Source: a virus. From it: a stretch of 63,626 nt of DNA. The stretch lies in the IMG/VR virus record IMGVR_UViG_3300045988_147865, positions 1 to 63,626 of that record, one strand, 5' to 3'. The translations under genes were made by a program, and so were the position numbers. Shown piece after piece: positions 2,817-63,626 of this stretch. Every line of letters starts with the position of its first letter. The stretch's first letter is position 1. The notes beneath the pieces are model-generated. The model was not told where the DNA came from, made no database searches, and saw only the letters and a program-made list of their open reading frames with translations.

Positions 2817-3283
2817 AGAAAAGGATTTTAGACATGTGCTGTGGCTCTCGAATGTTCTATTTCGATAAACATGACCCAAATGTTCTCTTCACAGACATAA
2901 GAGAGTATCACGACACATTATGTGATGGACGCAAGCTAGACGTGCAACCAGATATGATAGCCGATTGCACTGCCTTGCCATTCGAAGATGAAACGTTTAA
3001 TATGGTAGTATTCGACCCTCCTCATCTGTTAAAGGTAGGTCCTAACTCCTGGTTATGCAAGAAGTATGGCAAACTGCCCGAAAATTAGCAAGCGTTCATC
3101 AATGACTCTATCCACGAGGGCATGAGAGTGCTGAAAACAAACGGAACGCTCATTTTTAAGTGGAACGAGCAACAGATAAAGGTAGGTGAAGTACTAAAGG
3201 CAATTAAAGATTACAAACCTATATTCGGACATCGTACCACCATCAAGAACCAAACAATATGGATGGCATTCATGAAATGGTAG
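2813..3283 (+). CDS. Small SAM-dependent DNA methyltransferase (DPPH type, N6A/N4C-like) interrupted by an in-frame TAG at 3086-3088.
   Basis: LDMCCGS (motif I-like) and VVFDPPH (motif IV) lie upstream of the TAG. The same frame continues for 64 codons (EGMRVLKTNGTLIFKWNEQQ...) to TAG 3281-3283. Confidence 0.6.
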
Positions 3284-3310
3284 CGATAGAAGTTGCTCCC
3301 ACTTAGTCCC

Positions 3311-3337
3311 CGTTCCCAGCGATTCTATCGCTGGTCC
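3311..3337 (+). promoter_or_regulatory. Conserved hairpin family, copy a (CGTTCC + 8-bp stem + TCT loop).
   Basis: ccagcgat/TCT/atcgctgg at 3316..3334, preceded by CGTTCC. Same architecture as 11727, 11859 and 31457. Confidence 0.6.
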
Positions 3338-3369
3338 CATAAAAAAAAGTAAAATATCAAAGCAAGAAT

Positions 3370-3849
3370 ATGGAAAAGACTATTTATATACCAGGTGATT
3401 TGGTTATGACCAACGGCATTCCTATCGGAACCAAAAAGGGCATCGTTTACCAGGTCACAGAAAGTAATGCTGATAAATATGCAAAAGTGAAAGATGGAAA
3501 TGCATTCACAGAACTGAAAGGTTCCGTCACTCTTTCCAACTTAAAAGGAAAAACCATTAAAGATGATGGATTCCTATTTTGTGATAGTGGTGCATGGGTG
3601 AAGGATATTGTTCCTATCCCTCTCACTCCTTCCATCCTAGAAAAGAACGGATGGAAGAATGATGGTTATGATTGTTATAAGTTGCCAACAAAAAGAGCTT
3701 ATCTGTATATAGAAAAAGATACAAAAGTGAATGATGAGTTCTTAGTGTGTGTTAGTTTAGAAATGAACAACTTGGCAAGTGTTAGCTTCGTTCACGAACT
3801 TCAACACCTTCTTTACGGATTGAAAATCAACTCAGAAATGGAGATATAA
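3370..3849 (+). CDS. Hypothetical protein.
   Basis: 159-aa ORF starting after an intergenic gap. No recognisable motif. Confidence 0.55.
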   Translation: MEKTIYIPGDLVMTNGIPIGTKKGIVYQVTESNADKYAKVKDGNAFTELKGSVTLSNLKGKTIKDDGFLFCDSGAWVKDIVPIPLTPSILEKNGWKNDGYDCYKLPTKRAYLYIEKDTKVNDEFLVCVSLEMNNLASVSFVHELQHLLYGLKINSEMEI

Positions 3850-3853
3850 GCGT

Positions 3854-4186
3854 ATGACAAAGGAAGAATATGAAGAAATGCGTAACACCATCGACTCCGT
3901 ACGCGGATACTTCTACTCCATCGAAGAGCTAACCAAGGTCAGAGATCTCGTACAAGAAGTTGATGCATCAAACGACATTACTATACTAGAAAGCCCTGTA
4001 AAGTTTGAAATATTCATCCAGGGAATGTGCAGTGATACAAACGGAGACATCACCAAGTATCTCGATGCAGAAGCAATCAGCTACATCAGAAGTGCCATCC
4101 TCCGAAGATTAAATAGACGTATCGCATTCTTCGAAAATCAGATAGAAAACATTAATTACACCAAACGTAAAACAAAGAAAAAGTAA
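3854..4186 (+). CDS. Hypothetical protein.
   Basis: 110-aa ORF, tightly packed. Confidence 0.55.
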   Translation: MTKEEYEEMRNTIDSVRGYFYSIEELTKVRDLVQEVDASNDITILESPVKFEIFIQGMCSDTNGDITKYLDAEAISYIRSAILRRLNRRIAFFENQIENINYTKRKTKKK

Positions 4187-4434
4187 TGAAGATAAAAATA
4201 ATCAAACCAACAAAGTGCGCTCAGGATGTTCACGAAACGACAAAATATCCACGCCCATGGTTTAAGCCGAAGCCAGAGCTTCCAGCAGGTACGATTTTGG
4301 AGGTGAGTGATGTATGGTTGAATTTCTATGGTCAATATTATCGCTGTCAATTGCCAGAAGAAATGAAAGATAAAGGCTATTCTCTTCCATGGTACGACAT
4401 CCCAATAGAGAATGCTGAAATATATAAAAGTTAA
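4186..4434 (+). CDS. Hypothetical protein.
   Basis: 82-aa ORF. Its start overlaps the upstream stop (TAATG). Confidence 0.5.
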   Translation: MKIKIIKPTKCAQDVHETTKYPRPWFKPKPELPAGTILEVSDVWLNFYGQYYRCQLPEEMKDKGYSLPWYDIPIENAEIYKS

Positions 4435-4452
4435 ATTTAAATCATAACAATT

Positions 4453-5139
4453 ATGGCTGTAGTAAATGTAGATTATTCAGAGTTCGAAACCTTGAAGAAT
4501 CGAGTAAAGGAATTAGAAGAGACCGTCAAAGAGAAGGATAAGACCATTGCGTCCCTCAAAGACGGTTCCAGAGTCATCATCCGCAAGGAAGTGCAAGTAG
4601 AGTATGAGAGATACCGTGACCCATTCTACGAAATGGGTGGCATTGACAAAGACCCTTTGTATTCACAAGATGATAAGCCAAGACGCACTGTTGAGACCTC
4701 TGAGTCTTACCTTGGATTTGAAGATGTACGCTTGCAGGTTGAGAATCGAATGAAAGACGAGATAAACCGTAGCATCAAGCAGCGAGACGCTGCACGCGAA
4801 GATTACGAATCCCGTATTGAAAGATACAATAAGAAAGAAAAAGAGTTGGATGACAAGGAAAAGTCTCTCAAAGATATGTACGCCAATAAGGAAGCAGCTC
4901 TCATTTCTGAATATAAGGAGAAGGAAGAAGCACTTGAAGCAGCCTATCTAGACAAAGGCAAGGCGTATAAGCGACAATTAGAAGCGGATTATAAAAGTTA
5001 CAAAAATAGAGCTGGCTACTTGTCATCCATCTACGATAATGCAAAAGAAGCCCTGTCTCTCCTCAATGCCAATCGCTTCTTCAAACCAAAGGGTGTTGAA
5101 AGTATTCTAGCACAGATAATTCAAAAGTGTGAACAATAA
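4453..5139 (+). CDS. Hypothetical coiled-coil protein.
   Basis: 228 aa with E/K-rich heptad-like stretches. Confidence 0.55.
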   Translation: MAVVNVDYSEFETLKNRVKELEETVKEKDKTIASLKDGSRVIIRKEVQVEYERYRDPFYEMGGIDKDPLYSQDDKPRRTVETSESYLGFEDVRLQVENRMKDEINRSIKQRDAAREDYESRIERYNKKEKELDDKEKSLKDMYANKEAALISEYKEKEEALEAAYLDKGKAYKRQLEADYKSYKNRAGYLSSIYDNAKEALSLLNANRFFKPKGVESILAQIIQKCEQ

Positions 5140-61219: not shown

Positions 61220-61654
61220 ATGGAATCAGAAAAAGCAAAGTCAGACCGCATAGCCAGGCAGCGAGAATACTATCTTAAGCATCGTGATAAAATGCTCGCC
61301 TATTCTCGCAAATACATCAAGGATCATCCCGAAAAGAAAAAGCTATATCGGGAAAATGCAGCCAAGAAACGAGCCAACGGCACTGGATATTATCAGAGAT
61401 ACTATCAGCGCAACAAAGAAAAATTGCTGGAAAAATCTAAGAGCTGGAGACTGAATCACCCCGAAAAGGTGAAGGAGTACCAGCGCAGATACTATCAGAA
61501 GAAAAGAGCTGCAGCAAAGAAAGAAAAGAAGATAATGCTGAATCCAGATATAGATAAGGCAAAATCCCTCTTCCGTGATCCTTCTAAGACTGTTCACCTA
61601 CAGTGGCTCCTGGAGCACAACAGAAACAAAAGTAAGCAATATGAATCACGCTAG
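61220..61654 (+). CDS. Basic repeat protein (about 30-aa YYxxxxEK...HPEKxK repeats).
   Basis: QREYYLKHRDKMLAYSRKYIKDHPEKKKLY / YQRYYQRNKEKLLEKSKSWRLNHPEKVKEY / QRRYYQKK. Confidence 0.55.
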   Translation: MESEKAKSDRIARQREYYLKHRDKMLAYSRKYIKDHPEKKKLYRENAAKKRANGTGYYQRYYQRNKEKLLEKSKSWRLNHPEKVKEYQRRYYQKKRAAAKKEKKIMLNPDIDKAKSLFRDPSKTVHLQWLLEHNRNKSKQYESR

Positions 61655-62861
61655 TTTATTCAGCGGAATCGGTGGTGCTGAGGTCGCGGCATCCATGATG
61701 GGATGGCAGAACCTCTTCCATTGCGAGATACAAGAGTTCCCTCGCAAGGTGCTCCAATACTGGTTCCCAAATTCAGAAAGTTATGAAGACATTACCAAAA
61801 CAGACTTCACAAAGTGGCACGGCAAAGTCGATGTTCTCACAGGAGGATTCCCCTGCCAACCTTTCTCCCTCGCTGGCAGAAGAAAGGGAGCGGACGATAA
61901 CCGCTACCTCTGGCCACAGATGCTTCGAGCGATACGGCAGATACACCCCACTTGGGTCGTTGGTGAAAACGTTGCTGGCATCAAGACGATGGTGGAGTCC
62001 TGCCAAGTCACTCAGATGGGACGCACAGACTATCTTTTCGAAGAGAATCACCTATACCGAGAGGAAAGCCGATTCACCCTCGACAAAATCTGTGCAGACC
62101 TCGAAGCCGAAGGATATTCCGTCCAACCGATTGCTATTCCAGCTTGTGCCATCGGAGCACCTCACAGAAGAGACCGAGTTTGGATTGTTGCCCACACCCA
62201 ATGCGATGGACCTTCCTCACAAGGACATGGAAATCAACGAGCGAGGGCGAAGAAATCCAAAGAAGGGCAAGACAGACCACAGCCTAGGTCTAGAAGACAT
62301 GGCAGTGGCACAACTCCTTCCTACGCCCACGGCACTCGACAAAGGAGGAGGAAGAATAAACAAGAGCCTTTCACCGAATGCAGCAGAACGCCCAACCTTG
62401 GCACTCGCCGCTCGAAAAGGCTTGCTTCCCACTCCTTGCAGCATAGAAGCCACGAAGTTCACCAAGACCATCAATCCCAATTCCCAGATGGGGCAAGGTC
62501 TAACAGCCTTGGCGGTCAATGGTCTTCTTCCCACTCCTACGGCAATGGAAGTAAAACACTCCAACCGGGTGAAGGGTCTGAAAGAACAGGGTGTAAAAGG
62601 GATGTACAGCCGAAAGAACGGAGCACTTCGCCCGAATGGACTGACCGACTTTCTCGACTTCAACAATCAGGTAGGTGGCGGAACTTCCCAACTCAATCCC
62701 CTGTTTGTAGAGGAAATGATGGGATTCCCTTTGATGTGGACAGCCTTACCATTTCTTTCCCCAAGTGGCGACAAGAATCCATAAAGGCTTACGGCAATGC
62801 CTGGGTGCCACAAGTGGCTTACGAGATATTCCGTGCCATCGAGGCAGAAGAAAACAAATAA
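61641..62861 (+). CDS. C5-cytosine DNA methyltransferase, frame A (motifs I, IV, VI, VIII and X present; central about 180 codons are low-complexity R/S/Q/G-rich).
   Basis: MNHASLFSGIGG, GGFPCQPFS, VVGENVAG, APHRRDRVWIV, then NFPTQSPVCRGNDGIPFDVD...KAYGNAWVPQV. ATG 61641 lies within ORF 61575..62861. Confidence 0.7.
   Translation: MNHASLFSGIGGAEVAASMMGWQNLFHCEIQEFPRKVLQYWFPNSESYEDITKTDFTKWHGKVDVLTGGFPCQPFSLAGRRKGADDNRYLWPQMLRAIRQIHPTWVVGENVAGIKTMVESCQVTQMGRTDYLFEENHLYREESRFTLDKICADLEAEGYSVQPIAIPACAIGAPHRRDRVWIVAHTQCDGPSSQGHGNQRARAKKSKEGQDRPQPRSRRHGSGTTPSYAHGTRQRRRKNKQEPFTECSRTPNLGTRRSKRLASHSLQHRSHEVHQDHQSQFPDGARSNSLGGQWSSSHSYGNGSKTLQPGEGSERTGCKRDVQPKERSTSPEWTDRLSRLQQSGRWRNFPTQSPVCRGNDGIPFDVDSLTISFPKWRQESIKAYGNAWVPQVAYEIFRAIEAEENK
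61783..62784 (+). CDS. Overlapping +1-frame ORF (frame B) encoding four LLPTP repeats and an NPLFVEEMMGFPLMWT tail. It may be an alternative frame of the methyltransferase or an overprinted gene.
   Basis: 333 codons open, entirely inside frame A. LLPTP at 62185, 62314, 62422 and 62524. Composition is protein-like, unlike the frame A middle. Confidence 0.4.
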   Translation: MKTLPKQTSQSGTAKSMFSQEDSPANLSPSLAEERERTITATSGHRCFERYGRYTPLGSLVKTLLASRRWWSPAKSLRWDAQTIFSKRITYTERKADSPSTKSVQTSKPKDIPSNRLLFQLVPSEHLTEETEFGLLPTPNAMDLPHKDMEINERGRRNPKKGKTDHSLGLEDMAVAQLLPTPTALDKGGGRINKSLSPNAAERPTLALAARKGLLPTPCSIEATKFTKTINPNSQMGQGLTALAVNGLLPTPTAMEVKHSNRVKGLKEQGVKGMYSRKNGALRPNGLTDFLDFNNQVGGGTSQLNPLFVEEMMGFPLMWTALPFLSPSGDKNP

Positions 62862-62905: not shown

Positions 62906-63626
62906 ATGAAAACAGATGGCTACATATTTACTCCAGAGCTGTTGCAGTGGCGTTACTTCCATCGTCCTGTGGTCGTTCAGGTGCTCATCCATGTGCTCCT
63001 CTCCTCCGCTCACAACGAGGCTTCCGCTGCAACCCTCTCTTATCGTGATTTGGCTCTACAGCTCCATACCACGGTCAAGACCATCCGTGTCGCCATCGAT
63101 GTGCTCATAGCCGAGAAAATCATCACCAAGTGCTCTGCTCCAAGAGCCTCAACCAAACTCTACGTTAACAGTTCTCACCCCCTATCCCACTGCATCATAC
63201 CGTGGCAAAGAGACCAAGGGGCACAGGTTACGGCACACTTCGGGGCACAGATTGGGGCACAATCTAGGGCACAGATTCAATCTTCCGAAGTTCCTTTAAA
63301 TAAAGGCGATTCCGAAGATTCAGAAACTAGCAAGGGCACAGATAAGGGCACAATTAAGGGCACGAATAGGGCACAATCTAGGGCACAGACAAAACAAGGG
63401 GCACAGCCAATGGCACAATCTGGGGCACAGATTTCACACACTGAAACCCCTTTAAATAAAGGTGATTCCGAAGATTTAGAGATAGTCAAGGGCACAGATA
63501 AGGACATAGCAAAGGGCACAGAAGTAAGAGAAAAGAAACAAATAAAAGAAAATCTTTCCCCTGAAACCCCTATAAAAGAAAACAAACAAAGAAAAGAGAA
63601 AGTCCACCCCCAAACACAAAAAAAAG
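62906..63626 (+). CDS. Replication initiator/organizer, N-terminal part. The gene runs off the window end and continues in frame at 3..740.
   Basis: ATG at 62906 with no stop to the window end. N-terminus is winged-helix-like (LSYRDLALQLHTTVKTIRVAIDVLIAEKII), followed by a GAQ/KGT repeat region encoded by GGGCACAG iterons. Not in the ORF track because it lacks a stop in the linear window. Confidence 0.6.
   Translation, partial: MKTDGYIFTPELLQWRYFHRPVVVQVLIHVLLSSAHNEASAATLSYRDLALQLHTTVKTIRVAIDVLIAEKIITKCSAPRASTKLYVNSSHPLSHCIIPWQRDQGAQVTAHFGAQIGAQSRAQIQSSEVPLNKGDSEDSETSKGTDKGTIKGTNRAQSRAQTKQGAQPMAQSGAQISHTETPLNKGDSEDLEIVKGTDKDIAKGTEVREKKQIKENLSPETPIKENKQRKEKVHPQTQKK
63218..63521 (+). repeat. 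Iteron array (about 16 copies of GGGCACA[G/A], mostly at 12-bp spacing) inside the replication gene. Origin candidate.
   Basis: Copies at 63218, 63232, 63242, 63254, 63266, 63333, 63345, 63357, 63368, 63380, 63398, 63411, 63422, 63489 and 63513, plus a degenerate one at 63500. Confidence 0.7.
63552..63626. repeat. Terminal direct repeat, copy 2 (identical to 1..75).
   Basis: 75/75 nt identity with the window start. Confidence 0.95.

Follow-up and report, generated by a model that had tools for sequence, protein, structure and literature searches.

Nested same-strand genes at a viral methyltransferase locus probably encode a two-subunit C5 cytosine methyltransferase

The C5 cytosine methyltransferase locus near the end of IMG/VR virus record IMGVR_UViG_3300045988_147865, all 63,626 nucleotides of which form the window analysed here, contains two long open reading frames (ORFs) on the same strand, the second of which (frame B) is read in the +1 register and lies wholly inside the first (frame A). 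We propose that these are two genes and that together they probably encode a heterodimeric enzyme, with a catalytic subunit, alpha, from frame A and a DNA-recognition subunit, beta, from frame B. Frame B reaches 82% of the length of frame A, and the two share 1002 nucleotides. An earlier, sequence-only reading of this DNA had listed methyltransferase motifs in frame A, four LLPTP repeats in frame B and a third ORF on the minus strand, all of which are present in the sequence and the ORF listing where that reading placed them (Table 1). It had also offered three explanations for the locus: two changes of frame within one enzyme, an independently translated gene overprinted on the first, or compositional bias that keeps several frames open. 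The second of these, with a gene starting at the frame B ATG, is the best fit, given that this ATG is conserved, that a frame B tryptophan (W79) is invariant and that both frames are open.

Within its first 184 residues, frame A carries motifs I (LFSGIGG), IV (GGFPCQPFS), VI (VVGENVAG) and VIII (APHRRDRVWIV), ordered in one polypeptide as in a C5 methyltransferase. The variable region, motif IX and motif X that should follow motif VIII in the same chain are not found there as a series; a motif X, KAYGNAWVPQV, lies near the frame A end. The Pfam family PF00145 matches frame A at E = 7e-38 over profile positions 1-250 of 324 only, TIGR00675 scores 111 bits, above its cut-off, and the protein belongs to phrog_363 (E = 3e-70, residues 1-403), which carries the PHROGs label 'DNA methyltransferase'. 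When 39 frame A proteins are aligned, the core contains invariant residues and the C-terminal region (FPTQSPVC and onward to motif X) is conserved in all 39. The spacer between these two parts is hydrophilic and cannot be aligned, and the distance from motif VIII to motif X ranges from 95 to 325 codons among relatives.

Frame B contains the four LLPTP repeats and, at 62695-62742, the segment NPLFVEEMMGFPLMWT. With frame B as the query, a protein-database search at E <= 0.001 returned 2646 proteins; the top 120 of these are 66-99% identical over 88-100% of the query and lack any Pfam domain, except for one protein (P0071) in which frame A is fused to frame B. Database copies that bear a source name are labelled 'hypothetical protein'. 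A search of cluster representatives gave 3915 matches, many of them aligned from residue 1 to residue 1, and frame B was assigned to phrog_1008, again labelled 'DNA methyltransferase' in PHROGs. At the nucleotide level, a megablast search of phage records found only a 150-nucleotide match. Translated searches (tblastn) with the frame B segment 62176-62784 matched the methyltransferase genes of the Bacteroides phages BS-TP4 and BKO1-TP3 (38-40% identity), as well as mycobacteriophages such as Babsiella and DillTech15 (approximately 30% identity over 95% of the query).

The frame B segment VGGGTSQLNPLFVEEMMGFPLMW aligns with VNGKTRKLHPRECARVMGYPDSY of M.HhaI, whose motif IX is KTRKLHPRECARVMGYPDSY, and frame A KAYGNAWVP aligns with the M.HhaI motif X, KQFGNSVV; both alignments are weak, and both land on the known motif. 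Six frame B residues of the motif IX region (L304, P306, E311, M313, G314 and P316) are invariant. A hybrid query that passes from frame A to frame B and back to frame A matches PF00145 over profile positions 1-323 of 324, scoring 134.6 bits versus 131.3 for frame A alone. On the basis of this end-to-end match and the M.HhaI alignments, we assign the parts of the large domain (motifs I-VIII plus motif X) to frame A and those of the small domain (the variable region plus motif IX) to frame B.

The joint openness of the two frames is far from an effect of chance or composition. We resampled synonymous codons 3000 times, taking codon frequencies from 27 long ORFs in the window. With the frame B protein held constant over 62185-62745, 16.5 stops are expected in frame A and none is observed, and not one of the 3000 resamples was stop-free. 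With the frame A protein held over 61782-62186, 4.0 stops are expected in frame B, where again there is none (P = 0.005). The third frame of the plus strand holds 14 stops versus 9 expected, so stop trinucleotides are not generally depleted in the region. In the minus-strand frames, resampling predicts approximately 3.5-4.4 stops and 2-4 are observed; the 149-amino-acid ORF on that strand is a by-product that stands outside the system and needs no special explanation. When the resampling is extended to 36 genome loci, each with its own codon usage, means of 8.0 stops in frame A and 4.45 in frame B are expected, and 0.03 are observed in each.

The same arrangement recurs widely. Relatives of frame A, 48-99% identical, are encoded by 78 IMG/VR viral loci, and approximately 70 of these 78 contigs keep both frames, with frame A at 318-466 amino acids, frame B at 245-393 amino acids from the same ATG, and 11-32 stops in the third frame. 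A scan of bacterial genomes with the motif IX alignment returned 80 loci, mostly from Bacteroidota and some from complete isolate genomes; the genera include Prevotella, Segatella, Bacteroides, Parabacteroides, Porphyromonas, Sphingobacterium, Aquimarina and Flagellimonas. Motifs IV, VIII and X were all located at 66 loci; at 63 of these the three share one frame and motif IX is in the +1 frame. Motif I, where its pattern was detected, lies in the frame of motif IV at all loci but one. Frame A is stop-free from motif VIII to motif X at 62 of 63 loci, and so is frame B from motif IV to motif VIII (62 of 63), while the third frame averages 16 stops. Two cultured phages have the layout: BS-TP4 (PQ571277, 1852-3174) has a frame A of 440 amino acids with a nested frame B of 372, and BKO1-TP3 (PQ571269, 2559-3728) has 389 and 320. 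In both, the frame B match lies +1 to the annotated coding sequence, and only frame A is annotated ('DNA methyltransferase'). These predicted genes indicate that phages and prophages throughout the Bacteroidota have conserved the nested layout.

The start codon of frame B is conserved in position as well. All 70 diverse loci have a frame B ATG 26-71 nucleotides upstream of motif IV, mostly at -59, as in the window, where it is formed by the frame A codons TAT-GAA. At loci where the frame A sequence forbids an ATG at -59, a replacement is found at -71, -56, -53, -38 or -26. Synonymous resampling of frame A would give a usable ATG with a chance of 0.30 per locus, and one was observed at 30 of 30 loci. 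In the close clade, third-position diversity over frame A codons 45-49 has a mean of 0.028, the lowest among the five-codon windows of the 5' block composed of degenerate codons only (permutation P = 0.009).

Patterns of nucleotide diversity among 65-71 unique close relatives, calculated by codon position (A1 to A3 in frame A, B1 to B3 in frame B), reveal which frame is under amino-acid selection along the locus. In the 5' part that is read only in frame A, diversity is greatest at A3 (0.188, versus 0.049 at A1 and 0.023 at A2), as it should be when frame A is selected. Frame A is still the selected frame over 61783-62184, where frame B runs across motifs IV-VIII (A3 0.204, A1 0.124, A2 0.060). 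In the LLPTP region the most variable position becomes B3 (0.405, versus 0.205 at B1 and 0.165 at B2), identifying frame B as the selected frame; here the first positions of frame A vary most, and its reading is not conserved as protein. After 62760, A3 is once more the most variable and frame A is selected again. Amino-acid selection thus alternates from A (core) to B (modules and motif IX) to A (tail), and the stretch of each frame that is not under such selection is nonetheless kept free of stops. The initial claim that both frames look protein-coding over approximately 1 kb therefore stands in that both are open and both are selected, and has to be narrowed in that each frame is selected only in alternating segments, with strict dual constraint confined to short stretches.

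Those short stretches are informative. The sequence-only reading had proposed measuring synonymous-site constraint in each frame, and constraint specific to each frame was found in both directions. Inside the frame A core, all 139 unique sequences use TGG for frame B W79, whereas the frame A dipeptide above this codon takes nine forms (MG, VG, LE, VE, LG, ME, VA, MA and VD), in which every valine is encoded by GTG and every leucine by an xTG codon. Islands of synonymous constraint in frame A also occur at PTWVVG and MVESC, over the conserved frame B strings PLGSLV and RWWSP. In the opposite direction, over 62688-62759, only the positions that are A1 and B3 at once vary, at approximately 0.13 compared with approximately 0.4 in the modules and 0.36 in the adjacent alpha tail. 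The codon for frame B P306 is CCC in 82 of 90 unique sequences, whereas CCC accounts for 21-37% of the control prolines, which are those of LLPTP motifs in these genes; the bias preserves P354 of frame A. Q352 of frame A is likewise preserved by the use of CTC for frame B L304 in 70 of 90, and the frame B residue two before Q varies in identity (T, S, I, D, P, N, A, G or R) and has T as its third base in 84 of 90, which keeps frame A F349. In all, F349, P350, Q352, P354 and C356 of frame A are held by biased third positions of frame B, so that frame A FPTQSPVC and frame B (T)SQLNPLF are both selected on the same bases. Taken as comparative evidence, these reciprocal constraints show that both frames are evidently read where they overlap.

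Upstream of its modules, beta has a second conserved element. G58, L64, S67, W70, L77, W79, L118 and L121 occupy invariant or near-invariant columns, and in an AlphaFold2 model of beta alone, built from a 72-sequence alignment, the first 50 residues are disordered and a helix and long beta-hairpin are predicted at residues 56-123 (block-mean pLDDT 58-81), an element that contains W70, L77, W79, L118 and L121. This element and the motif IX helix are the only parts of the model with moderate confidence.

The LLPTP modules that follow are presumed to be target-recognition cassettes, a role suggested by their position, their modularity and the analogy with multispecific phage methyltransferases. 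Pfam and NCBIfam hold no family for beta, and a PDB search with the beta profile gave no match, so the recognition-domain label draws on position and on in-frame homology in mycobacteriophages. Close relatives differ by whole cassettes of approximately 25-60 amino acids that have been gained, lost, replaced or recombined from a shared repertoire; examples begin LLPTVQTQGLK, MMPTPSARDWKG and LLTPMAADGMRA (relatives P0004, P0041, P0085 and P0102; loci L008-L085; 62185-62690 in the window). The number of LLPTP motifs per genome locus, counted by regular expression, is 0-8, with many more at one exceptional locus (L007, described below). Each change of cassette must leave both frames open.

Put together, these observations suggest how the locus would work. 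Alpha would be the large catalytic domain, in which motifs I-VIII are followed by a spacer of approximately 160 amino acids and then by the FPTQSPVC region with motif X, which would complete the catalytic domain; the sequence of the spacer would be a shadow of frame B and would need only to stay open. Beta, translated from its own ATG at 61783, would be the small DNA-recognition domain, consisting of a poorly constrained leader, the helix and beta-hairpin with W70, L77 and W79, four LLPTP cassettes and motif IX. The two would assemble non-covalently into an active enzyme, as in M.EcoHK31I and M.AquI, and that enzyme would methylate phage DNA against host restriction. Translation of both frames, assembly of the heterodimer, the recognition role of the cassettes and the anti-restriction role are all things that we infer. 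In a broader form of the proposal, which we favour by a narrow measure, the approximately 1-kb overlapping pair would be an obligate two-subunit methyltransferase throughout the phylum, its silent stretches persisting as translated spacer and leader and its cassettes serving as a swappable library for retargeting.

Table 1. Coordinates of the reading frames and proposed functional features of the methyltransferase locus in the window. aa, amino acids.
Feature	Position (strand)	Description	Basis or remark
Frame A ORF, proposed alpha	61641-62861 (+)	ATG 61641 to stop 62861, 406 aa	ORF listing
Frame B ORF, proposed beta	61783-62784 (+), +1 relative to frame A	333 aa, wholly nested in frame A	ORF listing
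Minus-strand ORF	62217-62666 (-)	149 aa	ORF listing
Catalytic core of proposed alpha	61641-62192 (+)	Motifs I 61656-61676, IV 61842-61868, VI 61956-61979, VIII 62157-62189	
Spacer of proposed alpha	62193-62675 (+)	Approximately 160 aa; frame A reading of the nucleotides of the beta modules	Kept stop-free
Conserved C-terminal region of proposed alpha	62676-62861 (+)	W..FPTQSPVC..DG..D..ISFPKWRQESIKAYGNAWVPQV; motif X 62793-62816	
Proposed beta start codon, ATG 61783-61785, with A-rich context	61773-61790 (+)		Reduced synonymous variation in alpha
N-terminal structured element of proposed beta	61945-62157 (+)	Residues ~55-125	Overprinted on alpha between motifs VI and VIII
Four LLPTP-headed modules of proposed beta	62185-62682 (+)	Starts at 62185, 62314, 62422 and 62524	Presumed target-recognition cassettes
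Motif IX of proposed beta	62683-62742 (+)	TSQLNPLFVEEMMGFPLMWT	M.HhaI alignment, invariant residues
Stretch under dual purifying selection	62685-62759 (+)	Beta reads QLNPLFVEEMMGFPLMWTALPFLS, alpha reads FPTQSPVCRGNDGIPFDVDSLTISF	

Two-chain C5 methyltransferases have precedents. In M.EcoHK31I of Escherichia coli (Lee, Kam and Shaw 1995), beta is a fully nested gene, read in a frame other than that of alpha, and is the source of motif IX (PMC2836561; PMC3404938). The window locus resembles it in layout and motif placement, having a nested same-strand beta that supplies motif IX and an alpha that lacks motif IX and retains motif X. Unlike the window locus, M.EcoHK31I has its target-recognition domain in alpha, and its beta has been assigned no conserved motif other than motif IX. 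The window beta, at 333 amino acids, holds the whole presumed recognition region together with an N-terminal element overprinted on motifs IV-VIII, and in the window alpha a long unconserved spacer takes the place of the recognition domain, the selected sequence there being that of frame B. Furthermore, M.EcoHK31I is a single enzyme, whereas the type seen here is a phylum-wide family of phages and prophages. The second precedent, M.AquI of Agmenellum quadruplicatum (Karreman and de Waard 1990), also consists of two chains, with motifs I-VIII in alpha and IX-X in beta, split in the variable region (PMC3404938). The window differs from M.AquI in that its motif X lies in alpha, its family overlaps by hundreds of nucleotides and its beta has an overprinted N-terminal region.

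One family member has exactly the M.AquI division of motifs, with alpha and beta overlapping in +1. At this locus (L007, JGI 3300071631 contig of 63.6 kb, 2823-4983) alpha is only 201 amino acids long and stops 15 codons past the first LLPTP. Its beta, of 660 amino acids, starts inside frame A upstream of motif IV, overlaps alpha by 428 nucleotides, contains many LLPTP modules and then carries NPQFVAEMMGFPPDW, FFPTQSPV...ISFPKHRNESIKAYGNAICPQV and a stop, placing motif IX and motif X in one frame. L007 shows that the motif IX segment and the FPTQSPV-motif X segment are both, as far as predicted proteins can tell, genuine protein segments of the family. Across the motif IX of L007, HPTQPSVCG*DDGIS, interrupted by a stop, can still be read in the -1 frame, and a separate in-frame copy, FFPTQSPVLGKDN, follows 30 codons later. 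This layout looks like an overlap that was resolved by duplication.

Mycobacteriophages supply the collinear counterpart. Babsiella gp54 and DillTech15 gp66 are homologous to the window proteins over the LLPTP modules and motif IX and have the same order of motifs, and differ in that a single frame holds, collinearly, motifs I-VIII, at least five LLPTP repeats, EWMMGWPAGW and GNGVCP. The question, raised from sequence alone, of whether homologs have the LLPTP region in the same frame as the other motifs thus has two answers: collinear in mycobacteriophages and +1 in the Bacteroidota relatives. Over motifs VI-VIII, the +1 ORF of Babsiella (677-1171) and of DillTech15 (1190-1498) reads '...WNP.RQLWET.Q..LFSGHS.PYSETLPTSGMTR.G...LLPTP...'. 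The DillTech15 +1 ORF stops 3 nucleotides before the first in-frame LLPTP, and part of the Babsiella +1 ORF is annotated as gp55, 'DNA methylase domain protein'. These readings suggest that motif VIII already overlapped the first LLPTP before the actinophage and Bacteroidota lineages split, with the qualification that high GC makes the openness of the mycobacteriophage frames uninformative. The nested layout could have arisen from a collinear gene by two compensating frameshifts, rescued by complementation between fragments. It is possible to rebuild monomeric C5 methyltransferases out of fragments (PMC3404938).

Tandem recognition modules are themselves familiar in phages. The Bacillus phages SPR, phi3T, rho11s and H2 encode orphan multispecific C5 methyltransferases with tandem recognition modules between motifs VIII and IX, and the sets of modules differ among phages. 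Those enzymes are single polypeptides read in one frame, and their modules are not known to be of the LLPTP type. By analogy, the tandem LLPTP cassettes of the window, variable in number and shuffled among relatives, would be putative recognition modules of a similar kind. A C5 methyltransferase split so that the beta ORF is nested is already known, and the variant described here appears to be undescribed in the literature searched; searches for LLPTP and for overlapping or alternative-frame phage cytosine methyltransferases found nothing relevant. What appears new in this variant is a nested frame with 82% of the length of its host, the placement of the recognition region and N-terminal element in beta, the long shadow spacer and its distribution across the Bacteroidota.

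Of the competing accounts, the one that fares best, improbable as we judge it, leaves only beta and the N-terminal part of alpha functional. The spacer would then be open for some other reason, such as avoiding premature termination or polarity on downstream genes, and ribosomes would reach motif X by another route, for instance through internal initiation or by shifting -1 out of beta; the enzyme would then consist of three pieces or have a truncated alpha. A spacer that lacks amino-acid conservation and ranges so widely in length accords with this account, as does the alpha of L007, which ends just past motif VIII and leaves motif X to beta. Against that, motif X and FPTQSPVC are joined to the core by a stop-free frame A in 62 of 63 lineages, for which a continuous alpha is the simplest explanation. 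The spacer is also slightly more hydrophilic than a stop-free synonymous null (z = -2.7 in the window; mean z of -0.65 to -1.1 over 23 loci), which is expected if it is translated and is weakly consistent with such translation.

A little less probable still is a single polypeptide made by two programmed frameshifts, +1 after motif VIII (near 62184) and -1 after motif IX (near 62757), which would yield a canonical enzyme of motifs I-VIII, target-recognition domain, IX and X. The canonical order of motifs and the order of selection do both run A, B, A, the hybrid of that composition matches PF00145 end to end, the mycobacteriophage homologs are collinear, and TGGATT[G/A]TTGC at 62181-62191 is almost invariant in the close clade. 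We attribute this last invariance to the overlap of RVWIV in frame A with GLLPTP in frame B. The observation from sequence alone that there is no canonical slippery heptamer is borne out: neither a slippery heptamer nor a shifty stop occurs at either junction in the window, and approximately 60 diverse loci have no common slippery motif at the motif VIII junction, where the first LLPTP overlaps W(I/F)(V/I)AH in many loci and in others follows 5-10 codons later (overall, 0-10 codons separate it from motif VIII). Inspection of the second junction (62745-62760) by eye, confined to the window and its close relatives, showed no heptamer of the form X XXY YYZ, and synonymous sites downstream of this junction vary freely in the close relatives.

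Two frameshifts would also leave several things unexplained. Frame A stays open for approximately 225 codons past the proposed shift, to its own conserved C-terminus, so the zero frame does not close early; the account gives no reason why approximately 160 codons of frame A after the supposed shift, and approximately 134 codons of frame B before it, are free of stops. The conserved frame B ATG would have no role, nor would the frame B-specific W79, which lies upstream of the junction. Selection in frame A on FPTQSPVC would be equally puzzling, since the mosaic product would not contain that string, and a review of recoding includes no DNA methyltransferase case. The idea of two frame changes, as put forward from sequence alone, was thus right about the A-B-A order of motifs and the matching switch in selection, and founders on the open silent stretches, on the frame A selection under motif IX and on the lack of a conserved slip site.

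We give almost no credence to the notion that the locus reflects an assembly error, or that it is a pseudogene in which two indels compensate for each other. Indels do occur, as seen in rare variants, largely from single contigs, that fuse frame A to frame B at differing points (P0270, P0274, P0286, P0283, P0071 and P0048); yet the same relation of frames is found in cultured BS-TP4 and BKO1-TP3, in complete genomes of Bacteroides, Segatella and others, and in many independent metagenome assemblies, and there is purifying selection in both frames. The concern about uncorrected indels voiced in the first reading is accordingly excluded. Equally negligible is a single real frame with a chance partner in GC-rich, stop-poor sequence: local GC is indeed 52% against 42.9% for the whole window, which we prefer to ascribe to the avoidance of stops in two frames, and a third ORF is open on the minus strand, but compositional bias is refuted by the resampling (P below 1/3000 and P = 0.005) in the window and across genome loci, by the excess of stops in the third plus-strand frame, by the recurrence of the pattern in more than 60 independent lineages of differing GC and by the real homologs of frame B.

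The sporadic fusions deserve a word of their own. Proteins that join a frame A N-terminus to frame B at many positions also include P0238, P0158, P0153 and P0253; among the six fusion proteins with contig counts, five come from a single contig and P0274 comes from three. Either natural frameshift mutation or sequencing error may account for them: with both frames open, one indel is enough to produce a long fusion protein. When the A-B-A hybrid was used as a query, no conserved collinear close relative was found, only single-contig fusions at differing points; apparent matches covering 100% of the hybrid were rejected as collinear relatives, being ordinary frame A proteins.

Several points weigh against the two-subunit enzyme that we favour. 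Its support is all comparative. Starting beta at its ATG would require ribosomes to initiate inside the translated alpha ORF, and most of the first ~50 residues of beta are without constraint specific to frame B. The hybrid improves only slightly on the Pfam score of frame A by itself, and the LLPTP modules have no sequence match in Pfam, NCBIfam or the PDB. Structure prediction helps little: the AlphaFold2 model of alpha, from a shallow alignment, has a pLDDT of 34.5 and is uninformative, and that of beta is of low confidence overall (mean pLDDT 56, pTM 0.27). Finally, the sequences compared are related to one another, so joint probabilities overstate their independence and are upper bounds on significance.

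If the proposal is right, the locus would belong among the longest and best-supported overlapping gene pairs in prokaryotes. Gene callers normally disallow long overlaps on the same strand, and few such genes have good support in bacteria or the viruses that infect them; the comparative case here spans many genera of Bacteroidota, including Bacteroides, Segatella and Prevotella of the human gut and mouth. Annotation pipelines miss beta, and what appears to be a complete methyltransferase gene may be half an enzyme. Confirmation would turn the curiosity of M.EcoHK31I into a widespread design in which catalytic and DNA-recognition domains come from two frames of one gene. It would also provide a natural system for the origin and persistence of overlapping genes, and would point to a large repertoire of short cassettes, which may determine the targets that gut phages methylate and, through these, their escape from restriction.

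Neither of the neighboring ORFs has a Pfam match. The upstream ORF (61220-61654) encodes a very basic protein of 144 amino acids with three similar segments, in order YYLKHRDKMLAYSRKYIKDHPEKKK, YYQRNKEKLLEKSKSWRLNHPEKVK and YQRRYYQKKR. Its end overlaps the start of alpha by 14 nucleotides, which suggests translational coupling. The downstream ORF (62906-63626) runs off the end of the window and has repeats at 63219-63520. It includes a 122-nucleotide duplication (63242-63363 and 63398-63519, 77% identical) and 12 copies of GGGCACA within 300 nucleotides, compared with 15 in the whole window, where 5.2 are expected; many successive copies are 12 or 24 nucleotides apart. The array looks like a set of iterons inside a gene, or could simply encode a repetitive GAQ/KGT peptide. 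Phage lambda gene O is an example of a gene that contains an origin with iterons.

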